Assembly (NCBI GenBank): GCA_029838215.1
Contig: JALGVI010000009.1
Location: forward strand, 1-49,014
Reading direction: 5' to 3'
Length of the DNA: 49,014 nt
From: Candidatus Helarchaeota archaeon
GTDB taxonomy: Archaea; Asgardarchaeota; Lokiarchaeia; Helarchaeales; RDOG01
A program made the position numbers and the translations under genes. This document shows positions 3,462-41,076 of the stretch, piece after piece; positions within the stretch are counted from its first letter, which is position 1, and the number at the start of each line of letters is the position of its first letter. The notes under the pieces are model-generated. The model did no database searches. It was not told where the DNA came from and was given only the letters and a program-made list of their open reading frames with translations.

Positions 3462-5330
3462 ATGGAAGAAGACGAAATAGAAATGTATCTGGACATCTTA
3501 AGAGAATCCTCGACACCATTTGACCGATTCGTTTCTCATGGTCATACAAAAGATCCATTAGAAATGGACATAGAACGTCCTCGTGCACAAGCAGAACGGA
3601 TTGTTAATCGGGCCTTGAGATCTACCTTAAATGATAGGAGGGCACGATTTTGTCCGATTGTTGGTGCAGCAGGGACAGGTAAGACGCATTATTATTGGGT
3701 ATTGCAGGACCGTGAGGAAACAAAGGAAGGCGAGAAATGGGCAGTGGTGTACGTGCCATCACCTCCCGCTCAAGTTCGACTCTTGTTGCACATTTACACT
3801 TGTCTCGTCGATGAATTGGCGCCCCGCGGCTTGTTGAAGGACATATCTAAAAAAATCGTTGATAAATACAAGCCGGGCTTCCTGACAGGAATGAAAAAAG
3901 TCATTGAAAATGCCACGAGAGAGAACCCGGGTGTTAGCGGTGATGTTGTTCGGGCTTTGATCACGTATGAGATGTCAGATTCACGGAGAAAACGACGGTT
4001 TGCAGAAAAATGGTTATTAGGAGAGCCATTATCGGAAGAAGAGCTTGAATTGGCGCAATTAAATTCCGTGATTGAAGATGATGATGTCTGCCTGGCAACC
4101 ATAAAATTATTTGCACAATATAGCCCTCGCGTGTTGATTTTTTATTTTGATGAATTAGAAATTCCATACAGGACGTTTGGTGAAGAAGCGGAAATTAGCT
4201 TGCTGGAAACGATCAAGCGAATATATAACGAAATCCCAAACATATTGATTATCACGGCCTGTTTAGACACGGTATGGGAGAGAATTTATGAGAATAAGCC
4301 TGATCGTCCTGCTTTGGCGGATGCCGCCTTGAAAGGTAGGATGGAAACGGTTGCGGTTCTCAAGCCTTTTACCGTCGAAGACGTGGAAATTTTTTATAAG
4401 AGAGCCATGAAGTATTTTTGGGAGAATGAGAAGAACATGGCTGCACCTGCGGATCCCTTGTTTCCACTAAATGAGGATATATTCAAGAAGATTCATGAAA
4501 GAAGCCGCGGTAATCCCCGCGATTCCATCAAAATTATTCGAGATTACCTCGATAAGGTGTTGTTCGGGGAGGAAGGAGTAGAAATTAGCCGTGAAGAGAT
4601 TGCAACATTTGAAACGGAAGAGGTTCCTGCGAGTTCTGCACCAGTTGAAATCACGGTTACTGAAGAAATCATAGAAGAAACAGAAAAAACGACAACAAAA
4701 CCAGTAACAGAACAGCAAACATCGGTCAAGGTCGAAACATCCAATGCAACTGTTGAGGAAGAACTTCCTTCAGAAAAGCTCAAGAAGACACTCGTTCAAG
4801 TTGCAATAGAGGAGGATGATTACGTCATTGAGGTCACGCCTTCTGCAGTTACGGGTGCCGCCACGGATAGCATAAACATCCTGAGTAAAAAGCTGGGAGA
4901 AGAGATAGAAATTAAGATTGGGAGTTCCTTTACTTTTAAAGGCAGGTCGAAAAATATCGGTGCGGAGATAATTAAGGGTGATCTCCACATAGCATTGGAT
5001 GTTCCCTCGGTCAAGAGTTTTGATAGGAGTGGAGGCGTGGCAGCATTTTATGCTATCACTCGTTGTAGAGATGGAATTGAGTCAGGAACATATCAAAAAG
5101 CCATCCTGATAGTTCCTCGAGGAACCGGTGGTGCAAAATATTCTTCGGTTCGTGATTCGAATAAGGAAAACATCACGGTCATAGAAATAAATCAAAAAGA
5201 AGCCGAGCAACTGATTGCCCTTTCAAAGAGCGAGCCTTCAGAAAAGGGATTAGAAATTGCAAGCGTCGTTTTTCCAGAATTGAAGAAAGAAGAAGCAGAA
5301 ACATCCGAAGAAACTGGCACTCAAGAATGA
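3462..5330 (+). CDS. AAA+ P-loop ATPase (Orc1/Cdc6/ExeA/BrxD-like) with acidic linker and unknown C-terminal domain
   Basis: Walker A GAAGTGKT, Walker B LIFYFDELE, ALKGRM and RGNPRD sensor-like motifs; E/T-rich low-complexity linker around aa 375-435. Confidence 0.75.
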   Translation: MEEDEIEMYLDILRESSTPFDRFVSHGHTKDPLEMDIERPRAQAERIVNRALRSTLNDRRARFCPIVGAAGTGKTHYYWVLQDREETKEGEKWAVVYVPSPPAQVRLLLHIYTCLVDELAPRGLLKDISKKIVDKYKPGFLTGMKKVIENATRENPGVSGDVVRALITYEMSDSRRKRRFAEKWLLGEPLSEEELELAQLNSVIEDDDVCLATIKLFAQYSPRVLIFYFDELEIPYRTFGEEAEISLLETIKRIYNEIPNILIITACLDTVWERIYENKPDRPALADAALKGRMETVAVLKPFTVEDVEIFYKRAMKYFWENEKNMAAPADPLFPLNEDIFKKIHERSRGNPRDSIKIIRDYLDKVLFGEEGVEISREEIATFETEEVPASSAPVEITVTEEIIEETEKTTTKPVTEQQTSVKVETSNATVEEELPSEKLKKTLVQVAIEEDDYVIEVTPSAVTGAATDSINILSKKLGEEIEIKIGSSFTFKGRSKNIGAEIIKGDLHIALDVPSVKSFDRSGGVAAFYAITRCRDGIESGTYQKAILIVPRGTGGAKYSSVRDSNKENITVIEINQKEAEQLIALSKSEPSEKGLEIASVVFPELKKEEAETSEETGTQE

Positions 5331-8010: not shown

Positions 8011-8728
8011 TTTTAACCATGTGTTGATAATAACTCGTAATCGTGGTCGCTGTAAGAAAATCTCATCAATATTACATCAATAATTTACAAAGAAGTTCTT
8101 ATTCTTCATAATATGAAACAAATTTAAAAATGATTCGTCAAGCTTTTCATCTCTTTTCAAGCAATTTCGATAGTTTCGGGCAAGATTGATTGATATTTTT
8201 CTTCCGTGCTGGTTTGAAGATCTTTTCGAGTAATTTTACATCGGCACGATTGGAATTTAACAATAATGAATTTTTAAGATGCATTTTCGACTGGAATTTC
8301 ATCCGACAATGGAAGTATAATGACGAAAAATGCATGATTTTGATTTTCCACTAAATTTCATGATATAGAAAAAAAAAATCATTAAAAAAAGCACTTTGAA
8401 TAAATGACATAGTCCGAAGAGATTCATCACATCAGTTCCACTCAAGCAAATCAGAGGATTTCGAAAGGGATTTCAAGCTCAGCATGTAATTTTTATTAAT
8501 TGTGGCAAATCTTTTGAATTTTTTCGCGTAATCAGGTGAGAATGGTGTTTTTCTTAAGAGCAATTCAGCCGTTTACTCAATTTGTTAAACGAAGTTCTTA
8601 GGAAAATATAAAAATATAAGAAAGAAGAGAAATAAAAGAAACTGAAATTCGCTTTATGACTTTACGCCGAAGTCATCAAGTCAAATACAAACGTAAAAAG
8701 ACGAGAAATACACTCTCCCAAGAAGGAG

Positions 8729-9247
8729 TTGATAAAAATTCGAGAAGAAGTTGATTATACAGAAGCTGTTAACGAATTCAAGAATGACGATACCGTGAAA
8801 ATCGAACCGTGGGTTGATAGACTCGATCATCTGCGAGTGACGATTACAGGAATCAAGAATACACCCTATGATAAGGGTAAATTTGTTTTTGAGATAAAAA
8901 TGCCCTCAAATTATCCTTATGCTCCACCATACTGTTATTGTCAAACTTTGATTTGGCATCCAAACATTGACCCATCAGTACCACCTGGAAAAACAAACAT
9001 CTGCTTAGATTTGATCAATCCGGACCTGATCGGAAAGGTCGATGCTGCTTCAGGTGCAAGTGGATGGACACCTTCGAAAACCCTTATCAATGTCATTGAG
9101 GCTCTCAAGGGAATGATTCATTGCCAGGCTCCGTTCTTCAACCCTGCTGATCCCCTGAATCACAAGGCGGGTGAACAGGCTCAAAAAAACCCGAAGAAGT
9201 TCGCTGCAGAAGCTCGCAAGTGGACGGAAAAATACGCAAAAAGATAA
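8729..9247 (+). CDS. Ubiquitin-conjugating enzyme E2 (UBC fold)
   Basis: TPY..G.F..EI..P.NYPY.PP, HPNI, catalytic ICLDL, W.PS.TL, DPLN..A; TTG start after AGGAG. Confidence 0.93.
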   Translation: MIKIREEVDYTEAVNEFKNDDTVKIEPWVDRLDHLRVTITGIKNTPYDKGKFVFEIKMPSNYPYAPPYCYCQTLIWHPNIDPSVPPGKTNICLDLINPDLIGKVDAASGASGWTPSKTLINVIEALKGMIHCQAPFFNPADPLNHKAGEQAQKNPKKFAAEARKWTEKYAKR

Positions 9248-9266
9248 AGCAGGTGGGGATGGAATC

Positions 9267-10619
9267 ATGGGCGAGGAAAAGAAAGAGGAAGGAAAGGACC
9301 AGAAGGAAAAAATGCAACACAAGCCACCTTCTGATTTTAAGGAACAGGGCATTGTCAAGGTATCCTTGGATGCATATAAAACAATTATCCTCCATGCATC
9401 TCGGTTTGCCAATTCCAAGTTGCCAATTGACACGTGGAAGGAAATCATGGGATTCTTAATTGGAAAGATCGAGGGCGATGACGTCATCATCACCAAAGCA
9501 ATTCCCATGACACACGGTTCATCAGTCGAAGTCGAATTTTCAGATGAGCATTACATTCAAAGTGCTCAAATCAATTCATGGGCTGCAGAGAGGGATCTCT
9601 TCATGGTGGGTTGGTATCATAGCCATCCCGGACTTGGATTATTCCTCTCAAGCACGGACATCAAGAACCAGTTAGCCTATCAGGGACCAAACCCGAAGGC
9701 GATTGCACTGGTGTATGATCACACGTTATTGGATCCACCAAATCATCATGGTTTCTTGATATTCAAGCTTGATAGTCCTGACATGGGCGTGATGAGTGAT
9801 TTTCATGAGGTTCCTTTCGAAATTGAAGACATGGGTGTTAAAGATTTTACTACGACCTTAGTCGAGATGATTGAGAAACAGTCCGCTCGTCAGCCATTAA
9901 TTGCCGAATACGGCGAAGATACATCACTGATGAAAGGAGTTGAGGGCGGTTCCGATAGTGCCACATCAATGGTTTCGACAACTCCATTAGGCGAAGTAAA
10001 AATCACAGTTCCTCCTTTAAATTTTGATCTTGTCACTGAAGGAATGGTAAACACGTTCAAGGCAATGATTCAGGAGGTTCTACCTGCGATGTTCACGAGT
10101 TTTTCCGACCAAACTCAAGCAATTGCAGGTGCCTTCCAAGATTTGGCTAATAGACAAGTGAAAGCAATGAATGAATTCACCGAGCTCATTAGCTTGGGCA
10201 TTGGTGAAGTCCGTGAGAAGATCATGAGTAAGATCGAGGAGAGTCATGAAGGTACCACGAATATAATGGCAACAAATTTTCAACATTTGACGGAAACCGT
10301 GGAAAAATCGTCTGATGATGTCAGCGACATAGAAGATCGCATTATTGATGACATTGTCAAGACTAGAGAAGAGTTGGGCGAAAAATTTGGCGTATTTAAA
10401 GCTGAATTCACCGACGATTTTGGCAAGGAATTTGATAACATCAAATCAGAACTCAGTGATGTTGAAAAAGAAATTGTTGACAAGCTACGATTGTCGCAAG
10501 ACGCGGCACAAGAAGAACTCGTCAAGATCATTGAGATGAAAATCAACGATGCCATCAAGAATCTGAACATTAACGTTACCAAGCGGTTCAATGATCTTGA
10601 AGAAAAATTAAATAAATAA
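9267..10619 (+). CDS. MPN+/JAMM metalloprotease (Rpn11/CSN5/BRCC36-like) with long C-terminal coiled coil
   Basis: KEIMGFLIG and an intact GWYHSHPGLGLFLSSTD JAMM motif, followed by ~200 aa of acidic amphipathic helix. Start moved from 9171 to ATG 9267, just after the E2 stop. Confidence 0.88.
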   Translation: MGEEKKEEGKDQKEKMQHKPPSDFKEQGIVKVSLDAYKTIILHASRFANSKLPIDTWKEIMGFLIGKIEGDDVIITKAIPMTHGSSVEVEFSDEHYIQSAQINSWAAERDLFMVGWYHSHPGLGLFLSSTDIKNQLAYQGPNPKAIALVYDHTLLDPPNHHGFLIFKLDSPDMGVMSDFHEVPFEIEDMGVKDFTTTLVEMIEKQSARQPLIAEYGEDTSLMKGVEGGSDSATSMVSTTPLGEVKITVPPLNFDLVTEGMVNTFKAMIQEVLPAMFTSFSDQTQAIAGAFQDLANRQVKAMNEFTELISLGIGEVREKIMSKIEESHEGTTNIMATNFQHLTETVEKSSDDVSDIEDRIIDDIVKTREELGEKFGVFKAEFTDDFGKEFDNIKSELSDVEKEIVDKLRLSQDAAQEELVKIIEMKINDAIKNLNINVTKRFNDLEEKLNK

Positions 10620-10841
10620 AAACTTCATCATTTTTTCATTTTTTTGCACTCAGAACATTCAAAAATCATTGGAATTCTGCCGAATCGGCGTTTTTTTATT
10701 CTTCATTCAAATTTCTCTTTTAATTTTAGCAGGGCATCATGAGCATCAATCATGACACTGAAATGAAAAGCATTTAAAAAAGGCAGAAAGACTATAAATA
10801 ATAATTCCTTGTTCAATTTTTGCTTTGGAGGTATTCAGAAT

Positions 10842-12002
10842 TTGCCTTATCATTATGAAGATATTCCCGATATTAATGCAAGACCATTCTGGCCTTTAGG
10901 GCGCCATGTCTGGAGAATTTTTAAAGAGCTGGGATTTGACTATGCGGGCGATGCGATTTCAAATCTTGACAAAATTCTCTATGATGAATTGAATTCACGA
11001 TTGTCCCAAACCATACTTACTTGTCAACAGGTACAATCAGGAAAGATCCCGCCAGAGAATGCCGCGAAAACACTCACTTATATGCTCCTCCCACCGATAA
11101 CTAGTATGAGAACGGATCTAAGTCAGGGCACGATGAAACTCCTATATGGAGACAGCGTTGATTTGACGTTTGTCGTCATCAATGATCAGACAGATGAGAT
11201 CTTTTTCTTACTAAACGGACATTGTGAGACAGGGGTTCCTGTTGATTGGTGGGTTGTCGGACCCGATGATGACCTATTGGAACGAAGGCATTTAAAGCTC
11301 GGCTTCAAGTTGCGAGACATCTATAAAAGGCTGAAAGATTTTACAAAGTGTGGATTTCGTGCCATTGACATATTAAAGGACGTGAGAAATGAAAGGACGC
11401 CACAATTTGCTCATAGCACGTATCTCTGCGGCATAATATGGTCAAGTGGAATGGCACAACAGTTAATGGAACGAAGTAATTGGGAGACGTGGGCTTCAAT
11501 TCACGATGGCGTGAATGCAAAATCACATTATAAGCTTCCAGATTATTGGTTTTGTTACATCCCTTGGCCCCAGATGGTGCGGACTCTTCTCATGTTATCA
11601 AGACCTCGATTCACCTCGAAGATCGTTGGGATGACAAATGAGCACCGATTATACATACAACCAATTGAAGATATTGGTGCGAATTTCCTGAAAGATAATT
11701 ATCCAGAATTGTGGGAAATCGGCGTGACAAAAAATCTGAAAGAACTCGGCATTCCGTTGCCTGCAATGACTCTTGAGTGCCAGCCGCCAAATTTTCAAGA
11801 CAAGAAAATATTCAAGACGGAAGAATTCGACTTCAATTATCCCAGAAACGATTTCATACTTGACAAGCATTTGGGAATGGAAGAGTCTGAGATATTACAG
11901 GGCGTATTTTTAAACGTGAATCACGAAACGCCTTTCAAGGAAGATTATCGAGACGATATTTTATCGATTGGGCTAGGAACGGAAACGAAATTCCCCACAT
12001 AA
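10842..12002 (+). CDS. Uncharacterised protein, paralogue of 13100..14266
   Basis: Long ORF; TTG 10842 follows GGAGG and aligns with the N-terminus of the paralogue (PYHYEDIPD vs LYNYGDVPD). No family recognised. Confidence 0.85.
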   Translation: MPYHYEDIPDINARPFWPLGRHVWRIFKELGFDYAGDAISNLDKILYDELNSRLSQTILTCQQVQSGKIPPENAAKTLTYMLLPPITSMRTDLSQGTMKLLYGDSVDLTFVVINDQTDEIFFLLNGHCETGVPVDWWVVGPDDDLLERRHLKLGFKLRDIYKRLKDFTKCGFRAIDILKDVRNERTPQFAHSTYLCGIIWSSGMAQQLMERSNWETWASIHDGVNAKSHYKLPDYWFCYIPWPQMVRTLLMLSRPRFTSKIVGMTNEHRLYIQPIEDIGANFLKDNYPELWEIGVTKNLKELGIPLPAMTLECQPPNFQDKKIFKTEEFDFNYPRNDFILDKHLGMEESEILQGVFLNVNHETPFKEDYRDDILSIGLGTETKFPT

Positions 12003-12061: not shown

Positions 12062-12997
12062 TTGATGATAGTAATGCCGGACATCCTCACGCCAATCATC
12101 CTGAGCATGATTGCAGGCAGTGCCACCGTTTTGGGCGGAGTTTTGGGCATATTTAAACGACTTTCAATGAGACAATTTGACACGATCATTGGATTTGCAG
12201 CAGGTGTCATGCTATCCGTTGCCACGTTCGGACTCATTGACGAGGGTTTGACACTTTTATTAAGCTTACAAGCCCTGCAGATCATCGGAATCTTGATCAC
12301 GCTCACCGTTATTATTGGAGGGATATGCTTGGGAGTCTTGAGCCTTTATCTGATGGATAAGTTCATTCCGCACATCCACATGCTTGCGGGAAACGAGGAT
12401 AAAAAATCCAAAAAGGAAATGGATTTGTGTGAACGTGAATGCCTCTGCCCGAATAAAGAGCGATGGTTTGAATGCCCATACTTGGAAGATGGAAAATGTC
12501 GAAATTTGGGAGGATGTTTCTGTCCTAAAAAAGCAAAATTTCAAAGAGAATTAAAGTATTCAGGGATTTTACTTGCCATTGGTCTAACGCTCCATAACGC
12601 GCCAGAAGGAATTGCCGTCGGTGCGGGATTCATGGCCATTTCTTCACTCGGTATCACGATTGCCATCGCCATTTCGTTGCACAACATTCCAGAAGGACTT
12701 GCCATCGCAATTCCTCTCATGCAAGCAGATTACCCGCGGAAAAAAATACTCTTGATCACGTCAATCTCCGGAATGGCAGAGCCACTCGCGTGCCTTTTTG
12801 CAGTCTTGTTCCTTCAAGCATTGCCCAGTGCTTATCTTGCATTTTTTCTGGCATTTGCAGGTGGAGCAATGATTTACATCACGTCCGACGAATTAATACC
12901 CGAATCCCACAAGCACGGGTTTGAGCATGAAGCGACCTTAGGTTTGGTTTTAGGATTCATTCTAATGCTAGTTCTAATGGTCGGGTTCGGAATCTGA
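12062..12997 (+). CDS. zupT: ZIP (ZupT/GufA) family divalent metal transporter with Cys-rich loop
   Basis: FAAGVML, HNAPEG, HNIPEG and ELIPE motifs; multiple hydrophobic helices. Confidence 0.92.
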   Translation: MMIVMPDILTPIILSMIAGSATVLGGVLGIFKRLSMRQFDTIIGFAAGVMLSVATFGLIDEGLTLLLSLQALQIIGILITLTVIIGGICLGVLSLYLMDKFIPHIHMLAGNEDKKSKKEMDLCERECLCPNKERWFECPYLEDGKCRNLGGCFCPKKAKFQRELKYSGILLAIGLTLHNAPEGIAVGAGFMAISSLGITIAIAISLHNIPEGLAIAIPLMQADYPRKKILLITSISGMAEPLACLFAVLFLQALPSAYLAFFLAFAGGAMIYITSDELIPESHKHGFEHEATLGLVLGFILMLVLMVGFGI

Positions 12998-13099: not shown

Positions 13100-14266
13100 T
13101 CATTTAAAGAATTTTGTTTCGGAACCCATTCCCATGCTGATTTTCAGGTCAGGAGTCAGTTCCACGTCTAATGGGGTTTGATGATCAATGTCGAACAAGT
13201 AACCCTTGCTTGATTCTTCTTCCGTGATGTTCATGTTTTCCAGCGTGAGCCGAGCTCCGTCGGGTATGTCTCTTACCCACCAGCCATCAGGTCCGATCAT
13301 ATCTTTTTTCTTTGTTGGGATCTTCGTTCCGAGCGTTATTGCAGGAATCGGAATTCCATCGGTCGTCCACTGTGGCAAGTAACTGATGGGATAAACTTCA
13401 GCAAGTTCCGTCTTGACCCATTCCATTGCTCCGTCCTCAATGGTGTTCGTTATCAATTTGTGGCTCGTGGTCAAGCCTTCTATTGATTTTGTAAAATTGT
13501 CACGAGTCAAAAGGAAAAGAGTCGAAAACAATGGAGGTACCGGGTAATAGAGGAAGTGGTAATCCTTGATCTTATAGAGACGCTTCGCGTTCATTCCATC
13601 ATAAATGGAAGCCATTGTTTCGTAACAGGATTGCTCTGCGAAGATGTTGAACATTGCACTGCTGAAGCAAGTTGAAATGGTGTATAGAGAATTGGAAAAT
13701 TGCGGAGTTCGTTCATTTCGAATGTCCCTTAGGACCGATTCTAGCCATTGTGCACATTTTATCATGTTTTTTGCCTTTTTGGGAATGTCCCTGAGTTTGA
13801 CACCATATTTTAGATGCCTTCGCTCCATCAGGTCATCGTGCACGCCCGCCAGCCACCAGTCGACAGGAACGCCACCTTCGAGGTGACCATTAAATACGAA
13901 TAATAGTTCATGAGTGTAGTCATTGATGATTGCGAAGGAAACATCCGTCGAATCACCGTAAAGTAACTTGTTTGTTCCTACTTGCAAGTCAGACCTACAC
14001 GTCACGACGTGTGGAATGGTATAAAGAAAGGTCTTTTCGGCTTCTTCCTGTGATATTTCTCCGGAAAGAATCTTCCTGCCCGTGAAGATCATGTTGTCCC
14101 AGCGGGCTTTGGTAACGTCATATTGAACCTGCCGAAATTTCGAGAAGACATTTTCCATGTATTCAACGCCAAAATGTCGGAATACCTTGAAAATATGTTT
14201 TGAGATGAGCATGAATTCCTTCGTGAAATTATCATCAGGAACATCGCCATAATTATACAACGACAT
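13100..14266 (-). CDS. Uncharacterised protein, paralogue of 10842..12002
   Basis: Shares KLLYGDS, NGH, GVPVDWW, ERRHLK, KLRDI, RNERTPQF, DG.NAK and terminal S.G.G.ETKF with 10842..12002. Start is likely ATG 14266 (ORF track gives 14323). Confidence 0.85.
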   Translation of the reverse strand: MSLYNYGDVPDDNFTKEFMLISKHIFKVFRHFGVEYMENVFSKFRQVQYDVTKARWDNMIFTGRKILSGEISQEEAEKTFLYTIPHVVTCRSDLQVGTNKLLYGDSTDVSFAIINDYTHELLFVFNGHLEGGVPVDWWLAGVHDDLMERRHLKYGVKLRDIPKKAKNMIKCAQWLESVLRDIRNERTPQFSNSLYTISTCFSSAMFNIFAEQSCYETMASIYDGMNAKRLYKIKDYHFLYYPVPPLFSTLFLLTRDNFTKSIEGLTTSHKLITNTIEDGAMEWVKTELAEVYPISYLPQWTTDGIPIPAITLGTKIPTKKKDMIGPDGWWVRDIPDGARLTLENMNITEEESSKGYLFDIDHQTPLDVELTPDLKISMGMGSETKFFK

Positions 14267-14413
14267 TGAAATCCCCATTTTTTTGGAATAGATTACTTGA
14301 AACTCAGATTTTAATCTTTTCATGAAAAAAAACTAAAAATGCTTGTAAAATCGCTTTGTTCGATATATCTCCTTAAATTTTTTTTAAAAATAAAATGCTA
14401 AATTTGGTAATTG

Positions 14414-40164: not shown

Positions 40165-41076
40165 TTGATGATGGAGAAGAAATTTGAGAAATTATTCAAG
40201 AAGGAAGACGTTGCAGGACTGCTCGATCAATTCGATAAAGTTCTGTTAGCAAAGAAACCGAAAGAGAATGACGTAAACGTGGCAATCCAAGCGATTCAAG
40301 AATTTCTCAAACTCATCAAGGACAATAATTGGCTTTTACCAAAAGAATTAATCATCACGATTGGTTCTGCAATGAACCAGAAATTGGCTTGGCATCAACG
40401 ACAACAACTAATAGTAGCTCTTGGTGAAATGATCGATGCCTTTCCAAACGAATTGGTTACGAACCTTGAATATGCAGATGAAATAATTGCCATTTTAAAG
40501 GATAGAACGGAGAATGATGAAGATCCGGATAATCAGTTTAATGCAGTAATTGGTTTGGGCAAGATAGGGTTGCTCCTTCCTGATAAGGTCTTGGACTATC
40601 TGAAAAAAAACGGTCTAAAGAGTCTTAATAAAAACATACGCATTAATTCAATTTTAGCACTTAAGGAAATTGCAAAAAAATTTGATAAGACTCACGTCAA
40701 GCAAATCATTCCGTTCTTTACGGAAATCATTCAAAATGATACAGAATATCCCGTGATCATTCAATTAACGACGAGAGCCATTCAAGAGATCAACGAAACC
40801 ATGTATGAAGATGACGTTGTATTTACAAATGTTCTTGCAACAGAACAGGTCTTATGTCCATATTGCAATGAATTTTATCCAAAGAATTCAGAAGTATGCA
40901 CCAATTGCGGAAAACCATCTCCGAAATGCCTAATTTGTGGTAAAAGAATTGATTTAAACGATGGATCTTCCTATCAAGAGTGTGAACACTGTCACTCGTT
41001 CTTTCACGTTGAGTGCATCAAGGAATGGAAAGAAAAAAGCCCTTTTTGTCCCCATTGCATGAAAAAATTAACTTGA
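40165..41076 (+). CDS. HEAT-repeat protein with C-terminal zinc ribbon and C4HC3-type RING (candidate E3 ligase)
   Basis: HEAT-like helices, then CPYC-x10-CTNC, then CLIC...CEHC-x4-HVEC...W...CPHC. Confidence 0.78.
   Translation: MMMEKKFEKLFKKEDVAGLLDQFDKVLLAKKPKENDVNVAIQAIQEFLKLIKDNNWLLPKELIITIGSAMNQKLAWHQRQQLIVALGEMIDAFPNELVTNLEYADEIIAILKDRTENDEDPDNQFNAVIGLGKIGLLLPDKVLDYLKKNGLKSLNKNIRINSILALKEIAKKFDKTHVKQIIPFFTEIIQNDTEYPVIIQLTTRAIQEINETMYEDDVVFTNVLATEQVLCPYCNEFYPKNSEVCTNCGKPSPKCLICGKRIDLNDGSSYQECEHCHSFFHVECIKEWKEKSPFCPHCMKKLT

Follow-up and report, generated by a model that had tools for sequence, protein, structure and literature searches.

We analysed two adjacent genes, encoding a ubiquitin-conjugating enzyme (E2) and an MPN+/JAMM metalloprotease (hereafter the JAMM protein), in a 49,014-nucleotide stretch of contig JALGVI010000009.1 from a Candidatus Helarchaeota archaeon, the whole of which we call the window. 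The source is a Helarchaeales-type Lokiarchaeia metagenome-assembled genome (MAG) of 3.6 Mb that is 94% complete and 6% contaminated; its order is small, and the class genome set is otherwise made up mostly of one large Lokiarchaeales-type family. The two genes, the parts of their products and the adjoining non-coding stretches are as follows (aa, amino acids; pLDDT, predicted local distance difference test).

8011-8728, no strand: AT-rich non-coding spacer of 718 bp between a divergent oxidoreductase gene and the E2 gene
8729-9247, + strand: E2 ubiquitin-conjugating enzyme, 172 aa, TTG start
8957-9004, + strand: E2 active-site stretch, from HPN residues 77-79 (8957-8965) to the Cys92 codon (9002-9004), read off the sequence
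9017-9064, + strand: E2 loop insertion of 16 residues between the catalytic Cys motif and a conserved Trp, seen in the alignment to UBE2T
9248-9266, + strand: E2-JAMM intergenic gap of 19 bp, with a Shine-Dalgarno-like GGTGGGGA 7 nt before the ATG at 9267
9267-10619, + strand: MPN+/JAMM metalloprotease of 450 aa that ends in a long helical tail, Pfam JAB (PF01398) at 3.3e-16
9354-9884, + strand: MPN domain, residues 30-206, AlphaFold pLDDT mostly 75-92
9441-9443 (Glu59) and 9618-9659 (HSH-x7-S-x2-D), + strand: JAMM catalytic site, located by its motif
9885-10022, + strand: linker, residues 207-252, mostly predicted disordered
10023-10613, + strand: acidic helical stalk, residues 253-449, about 18 hendecads, AlphaFold helices 253-381 and 386-449 at pLDDT 55-70

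The product of the first gene belongs to the UBC/E2 family, scoring 96.7 bits against Pfam UQ_con (PF00179; E-value 1.2e-27; cut-off 27) with its HPN motif and catalytic Cys in place, and its start matches that of the orthologue in genome G001, where GTG stands at the same aligned position. Catalytic Cys92 lies within the motif NICLDLI, and both HPNID and NICLDLIN are unchanged in 30 of 30 aligned orthologues, over which 44% of all positions are invariant, including two loop insertions that flank the active site. The 16-residue loop is nearly invariant across the class and thus appears to be under constraint. The best solved relatives of the E2 are UBE2T (2.7e-18) followed by UBE2K and Ubc13 (~1e-15). 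Matches to the E2 were found in all 61 Lokiarchaeia genomes searched (61/61), mostly full-length and at 65-82% identity, and NCBIfam held no named family for either the E2 or the JAMM protein.

The JAMM protein scores 59.6 bits against the JAB profile (cut-off 22.5), and its catalytic residues E59, H118, H120, S128 and D131 are complete and invariant in 35 aligned homologues. An AlphaFold model built on this 35-sequence alignment matched Rpn11, CSN5 and BRCC36 with a Foldseek probability of 1.00. In a phmmer comparison of the MPN domain with the Protein Data Bank (PDB), the closest sequence was Caldiarchaeum CsRpn11 (3.2e-14), followed by CSN5 and Rpn11 (~1e-12), AMSH (7e-7) and BRCC36 (1.7e-6); by fold, BRCC36, CSN5/6, eIF3 and Rpn11/8 all score alike against the model, so that an MPN domain followed by helices, which the initial annotation had likened specifically to BRCC36, is better described as the generic layout of MPN assembly subunits. 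The orthologue group comprises ~40 clusters, 50-75% identical, that for the most part bear the label Helarchaeota and are annotated only as Mov34/MPN/PAD-1. In a tree of archaeal MPN paralogues, for which the eukaryotic Rpn11, CSN5, BRCC36 and AMSH were compared through their phmmer E-values to the PDB, proteins with this tail (JAMM-tail proteins) form a supported Helarchaeales clade of their own (94/95), and the short operon-type JAB sits elsewhere on a long branch. Other parts of the initial annotation were sound: an E2 with intact HPN and catalytic Cys ends at 9247 (TAA 9245-9247), a JAMM gene with an intact E...HSH-x7-S-x2-D motif begins 19 bp later (ATG 9267), and the encoded protease stands apart from ordinary operon JAB proteins.

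The MPN domain is joined to its tail by a linker in which residues 219-252 fall below pLDDT 50 and across which orthologues share 49% identity. The tail carries a net charge of -19, and its hydrophobic residues recur with a period of 3.67 (11/3) at a power of 272, compared with a maximum of 118 over 500 shuffles and a power of 5 at period 3.5. The 3.67 period is present in every 56-residue sub-window of the tail and in each orthologue sampled, self-similarity is best at lags of 11 and 22, and about six of the eleven hendecad positions make an apolar arc opposite a polar face that is nearly pure Asp/Glu. Identity among orthologues reaches 53-56% over the first two thirds of the tail (residues 253-381) versus 65% over the MPN domain. 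Of the initial description of this region as an acidic coiled coil of ~200 aa, the acidity, helicity and length hold; the repeat is hendecad and not heptad, and the value at period 3.5 led us to reject a left-handed heptad coiled coil. We also disfavour an apolipoprotein-type membrane-binding amphipathic helix, which would carry Lys/Arg at the interface where the tail has none; the Pfam Apolipoprotein profile reaches 26 bits against a cut-off of 90, and lipid binding of this type is unlikely because the polar face is acidic. Most likely the tail forms a straight hendecad-based helical bundle, a stalk of up to ~30 nm through which the enzyme would oligomerise or dock. A HMMER search over 1.8 billion representatives for tail homologues beyond the family returned only two related clusters and low-complexity giant helical proteins, and an ESM Atlas feature search gave no usable match. 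This hendecad stalk is the most unusual single feature of the module described below.

The E2 and JAMM genes are likely co-transcribed as a putative operon, and the 718-bp spacer upstream presumably holds their promoter. Searches with hidden Markov models (HMMs) gave no ThiF or ubiquitin match on the contig of the window, all genome-wide matches falling on other contigs, and the nearest RING lies ~30 kb from the pair at the C terminus of a HEAT-repeat protein (40165-41076, + strand). That protein is encoded by the only RING gene found in the window and scores 27.3 bits against zf-RING_2, exactly at the cut-off. The pair therefore has neither the ubiquitin gene nor the activating enzyme (E1) gene that share a cluster in a canonical operon, and the initial statement that no ubiquitin, E1 or RING gene is adjacent is correct. 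Across the MAG, HMM searches counted 4 UBC-fold, 9 MPN and 8 ThiF matches and 3 ubiquitin-like genes. One cluster on contig C112 has the order Ub-E2-E1 with a small RING-like open reading frame (ORF) beside it, and contig C122 (24920-28278) bears a canonical Ub-E1-E2-JAB cluster; because both hold their own ubiquitin genes, the pair in the window is additional to the standard operons and, as first proposed, distinct from the canonical one on C122. The C122 ubiquitin carries an acidic extension of 50 residues at its N terminus and finishes in GGF, which calls for C-terminal processing, and the E1 and E2 genes of that operon have an ORF of 95 aa between them. Two further MPN proteins elsewhere in the MAG (C71 and C64) are without the JAMM motif.

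Gene order in relatives shows what surrounds the pair elsewhere. We assembled 15 distinct loci with a JAMM-tail orthologue, 13 of them informative for E2 adjacency, and the adjacency that the initial annotation had suggested checking across Asgard genomes recurs: E2 is the immediate neighbour of the JAMM-tail gene in 10 of the 13, co-directional in six and divergent in four. A gene for a protein with a VWA domain and a RING finger (VWA-RING) accompanies the JAMM gene more constantly than any other, lying within a few genes of it in 12 of 15 loci. In loci L085 and L093 the order is RWDx3-RING (a protein with three RWD-like repeats and a RING-like cluster), E1, E2 and JAMM-tail, followed on the opposite strand by a ThiF-like gene, VWA-RING and a VTT-domain protein; in L087 and L092 it is VWA-RING, in part with an intervening VTT gene, then an Arf-like GTPase, RWDx3-RING, E1, E2 and JAMM-tail. 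Within a few genes of the module, large GTPases of Arf/Roc-like type (450-656 aa) and a membrane protein with a VTT domain (DedA/VMP1-like) are encoded repeatedly (L087, L092, L093-L096). Among the loci examined, no ubiquitin gene was seen inside the Helarchaeales module, no ESCRT (endosomal sorting complex required for transport) gene occurs in it, none of the 15 encodes an MPN- partner of the Abraxas/KIAA0157 kind, and no PCI, Rpn8-like MPN- or proteasome gene was detected by Pfam among the neighbours, leaving the JAMM protein without the company of a lid Rpn11. In L089 a separate canonical Ub-E1-E2-JAB operon lies a few kb upstream of the JAMM-tail gene.

Orthologues of the parts that the window does not contain are found on other contigs of the same MAG. 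Compared with the G001 locus, the E1 and the RWDx3-RING protein on C155 are 70% and 60% identical, the VWA-RING protein on C131 is 61% identical and the ThiF-like protein on C62 is 47% identical; on C155, the E1 gene is followed by unrelated genes at the expected position of E2. A second, independent contig that comes from a different sample (L091) repeats the order oxidoreductase, gap, E2, JAMM, with a JAMM protein 75% identical, so the arrangement is no assembly artefact, and the rearrangement that left E2 and JAMM alone is common to this genome and L091. Because relatives carry the full module and its parts are retained elsewhere in this genome, we read the absence of a nearby E1 as a lineage-specific break-up and not as a two-gene system. 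The E2-JAMM link was seen in Helarchaeales only. Genomes of the Lokiarchaeales-type family have a HAD hydrolase gene after the E2 orthologue, and five of the Lokiarchaeales loci examined also have, near E2, a convergent gene that corresponds to the C-terminal half of this type of E1 (E2 > HAD < E1), so the E1-E2 link reaches beyond Helarchaeales. JAMM-tail homologues in Lokiarchaeales-type genomes (L032-L053; G007-G053) form tandem arrays of two to three paralogues of 470-530 aa, some with hendecad tails, and these arrays have no E2 or VWA-RING gene within 1.5 kb.

The partner proteins are eukaryote-like in their domains. The E1 matches UBA3 over its whole length (residues 21-389, ~1e-36) and UBA1/UBA6 in the adenylation domain (4e-43), and it is a eukaryote-type enzyme whose C-terminal region could recruit an E2. 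The RWDx3-RING protein (P0129) combines three UBC/RWD-like repeats with an invariant Cys/His cluster; the best PDB matches of its model (pLDDT 80.8), along the entire protein, are to FANCL (1.3e-8 and 4.7e-8), followed by BRE/BRCC45 (1.7e-6). UBE2T is both the partner E2 of FANCL and the best solved relative of the E2 in the window; the joint FANCL/UBE2T resemblance of ligase and E2 is suggestive only. The VWA-RING protein has a VWA domain nearest Rpn10 and a RING nearest Arkadia/RNF38.

A candidate modifier lies apart from all of these genes. An orphan ubiquitin-like protein (Ubl) of 86 aa is encoded at C1:59091-59351 (- strand), ends exactly in Gly-Gly and has no ubiquitin-system genes beside it (L023/L097). 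It is present in 51 of the 61 class genomes and is 98% identical in G001, 87-98% in Helarchaeales and 62-72% in other families. The E2, the E1 type and the orphan Ubl are each present in most of the Lokiarchaeia genomes searched, or in all of them, and because the broad conservation of the Ubl parallels that of the E2 and E1, we infer that it is the best candidate modifier for the module. In genome G029, matches to the orphan Ubl stand at the N-terminal ends of open frames of 623-1593 aa on several contigs, which suggests a giant-protein family with a ubiquitin-like head.

We consider it probable that the pair encodes two enzymes, the E2 and the MPN+ isopeptidase, of an additional ubiquitin-like conjugation system of eukaryote type, apart from the two ubiquitin-bearing clusters of the genome. 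The full Helarchaeales neighbourhood would supply this system with the RWDx3-RING ligase, the UBA3-like E1, the E2, the JAMM protein with its hendecad stalk, the ThiF-like protein and the VWA-RING ligase, and rearrangement would have left the E2 and JAMM genes together here with the rest on C155, C62 and C131. The C155 E1 would activate a ubiquitin-like protein, for which the orphan C1 Ubl is the best candidate, and would hand it to Cys92 of the E2; the RING ligases would then target the Ubl to substrates, and the JAMM protein would hydrolyse the isopeptide bond, its ~200-residue acidic hendecad helix bundling so as to oligomerise the enzyme or dock partners. If the orphan C1 Ubl is the modifier, its Gly-Gly end would need no precursor processing, and the role of the JAMM protein would be that of an eraser or editor and not that of a maturase.

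Several observations weigh against this proposal. The JAMM gene has no adjacent E2 in three of the 13 informative loci (L089, L090 and L028), and in Lokiarchaeales the E2 orthologue is without a JAMM neighbour and JAMM-tail homologues stand in tandem arrays, so the E2-JAMM link is order-specific and could be partly historical. The tail is modelled at a pLDDT of only 55-70, the TM-scores of the RWDx3-RING protein to FANCL are low (0.22-0.25) with differing domain orientations, and the preference of the E2 for UBE2T is modest, at about three orders of magnitude in E-value. The putative tie of the Ubl to the E1 and E2 is drawn from parallel conservation alone, and the two other ubiquitin genes of the genome might serve the E2 instead.

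The initial annotation had proposed a dedicated writer/eraser pair for a specific chain type or substrate. If such a pair were self-sufficient, the E2 would be charged by one of the E1s of the canonical operons and, with the JAMM protein, would set the level of one chain type or one substrate with neither an E1 nor a ubiquitin ligase (E3) of its own. E3-independent E2s are known in eukaryotes, only the E2 and JAMM genes are linked in this genome and in L091, with a 19-bp gap, and both genes are intact and under constraint. However, in most related loci E2 is directly preceded by the gene of a dedicated E1, with the genes of two RING proteins a short distance away, and the E1 type also lies near E2 in the five Lokiarchaeales loci. 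The components that relatives add (E1, RWDx3-RING, ThiF-like and VWA-RING) have orthologues in this genome retained at 47-70% identity, which argues that they are still in use, and we regard a self-sufficient two-gene pair as unlikely.

The same components could instead form a deubiquitinase resembling BRISC/BRCA1-A or the proteasome lid, in which the JAMM, RWD/UEV and VWA proteins would assemble much as BRCC36, BRE and MERIT40 or Rpn11 and Rpn10 do, with the E2 as an associated factor. The domain types agree with such a complex: helices follow the MPN+ domain, UBC-like folds occur in tandem, and a VWA domain is present. Foldseek ranks BRCC36 chains among its top matches to the JAMM model, the RWDx3-RING model resembles BRE more than any family but FANCL, and a lid-like arrangement would fit the Rpn10-like VWA domain of the most constant JAMM neighbour. 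These points are offset by the MPN sequence, which is nearer Rpn11/CSN5 than BRCC36 while Foldseek scores the MPN families alike, and by the RING fingers on both putative scaffolds, which make them look like ligases. The RWD protein moreover matches FANCL better than BRE, the VWA domain is nearest that of Rpn10, and no locus encodes an MPN- partner. We do not favour the BRISC parallel, judging a deubiquitinase of this kind improbable.

A broader evolutionary version, which we put forward tentatively and think doubtful, holds that the two genes are the remaining core of an Asgard assembly possibly ancestral to the MPN-VWA-UEV machines of eukaryotes (BRISC/BRCA1-A, or the corner of the lid formed by Rpn11 and Rpn10), in which a JAMM protein on a rigid 30-nm stalk, the VWA-RING protein, the FANCL-like RWDx3-RING protein and the UBE2T-like E2 would write and erase a dedicated, class-conserved Ubl mark. 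The recurrent Arf/Roc-like GTPase and VTT neighbours give a hint of a membrane location for that ancestral assembly. Least of all do we expect a bacterial-type E2/JAB module for defence against viruses (Bil-like, or like Cap2/Cap3 of the cyclic-oligonucleotide-based anti-phage signalling system, CBASS), an analogy that the initial annotation had raised from the E2-JAB couplings that occur in defence systems and that we find highly improbable, as the PADLOC matches that speak for it (JAB 1.5e-6; E1-E2 0.001) are far weaker than those to eukaryote-type Pfam models, the presence of the E2 in every class genome searched is the opposite of a patchy defence-gene distribution, no cyclase, effector or other defence gene lies nearby, and in relatives the pair stands beside E1 and RING genes of eukaryote type.

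A eukaryote-type conjugation system with dispersed parts, the reading that we prefer, is a variant of known archaeal eukaryote-type ubiquitin systems. The Caldiarchaeum subterraneum operon encodes Ub, E1, E2, a small RING protein and Rpn11, and CsRpn11 matures its ubiquitin precursor (PMC5654768, PMC6043591). Both systems place a eukaryote-type E1, an E2, a RING E3 and an MPN+ isopeptidase together in an archaeon, and CsRpn11 is the closest solved relative of the MPN domain in the window. The Caldiarchaeum operon has its own ubiquitin precursor, whereas the Helarchaeales module is without a ubiquitin gene and its candidate modifier already ends in Gly-Gly; in place of a small RING protein the module has RWDx3-RING, VWA-RING and the 200-residue hendecad stalk of the JAMM protein, and in the window it is cut to E2 and JAMM. 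Asgard ubiquitin clusters with ESCRT-I/II/III genes, and with a UEV domain N-terminal to a Vps23 core, have been described (PMC9192718; bioRxiv 10.1101/2023.07.25.550441, on the Helarchaeota UEV-Vps23 cascade). They share with the module the organism group, eukaryote-like E1, E2 and RING proteins and UBC-fold pseudo-enzymes; unlike the Helarchaeales module loci examined, they contain ubiquitin and ESCRT genes.

Eukaryotic complexes offer partial parallels. In BRISC/BRCA1-A, BRCC36 likewise carries an MPN+ domain followed by C-terminal assembly helices, and the tandem UEV of BRE and the VWA of MERIT40 are the domain types encoded next to the JAMM gene in relatives; however, the sequence likeness to BRCC36 is weak, an MPN- partner is missing from the loci, the JAMM neighbours are RING ligases, and the JAMM tail is hendecad and four times longer. 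Rpn11 and CSN5 are the closest solved families after CsRpn11, use C-terminal helices for assembly and, through Rpn10, provide the nearest relative of the neighbouring VWA domain; they differ in that the loci examined hold no PCI, MPN- or proteasome genes and in that the JAMM tail is far longer than the lid helices. The order of three UBC/RWD-like folds and a RING is that of FANCL, which is the best PDB match of the ligase just as UBE2T is the nearest solved E2; the low TM-scores, the modest UBE2T preference and the lack of other Fanconi components set the Helarchaeales proteins apart. A kinetochore paper has noted an RWD-like domain in Asgard archaea. We found no published description of the module or of the JAMM-tail family in a literature search that covered subscription journals thinly, and the supplements of the asCOG survey may hold one.

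Around the pair, the upstream flank is an indolepyruvate/2-oxoacid:ferredoxin oxidoreductase gene pair and the downstream flank encodes a protein without a Pfam match. The spacer at 8011-8728 contains only short ORFs, none with conserved features, and has no Rfam match; no small ubiquitin-like ORF or RNA was found in it or between E1 and E2 in G001, and a similar gap precedes E2 in L091. Two paralogues of ~400 aa without Pfam or PADLOC matches (10809-12002, + strand; 13100-14323, - strand) flank a ZIP zinc transporter gene (12062-12997), the first lying 190 bp beyond the JAMM gene and in the same orientation, and L091 too has a protein of 387 aa without a Pfam match downstream of the pair. Farther upstream, a 622-aa protein (3462-5330, + strand) has weak P-loop matches (AAA_16, STAND NTPase and BrxC/D; E-value ~0.005) and a long acidic, Thr-rich middle.

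For the window alone the lesson is modest: an apparent orphan pair is a broken-up cluster, and a reading of it in isolation misleads. Asgard archaea offer the best view of the diversification of the eukaryotic ubiquitin system, and published work has centred on ubiquitin-containing operons and the ESCRT link. The module is set apart by the lack of its own ubiquitin gene, an E2 and an E1 type that most or all of the searched Lokiarchaeia genomes share, two multidomain RING ligases of eukaryote-like architecture, one FANCL-like and the other an Rpn10-like VWA-RING protein, and a deubiquitinase on a hendecad stalk, and all of its proteins are small enough for reconstitution in vitro. If these parts work together, the pairing of E3 and deubiquitinase, RWD-RING ligases and long-helix MPN assembly would already be present in archaea.

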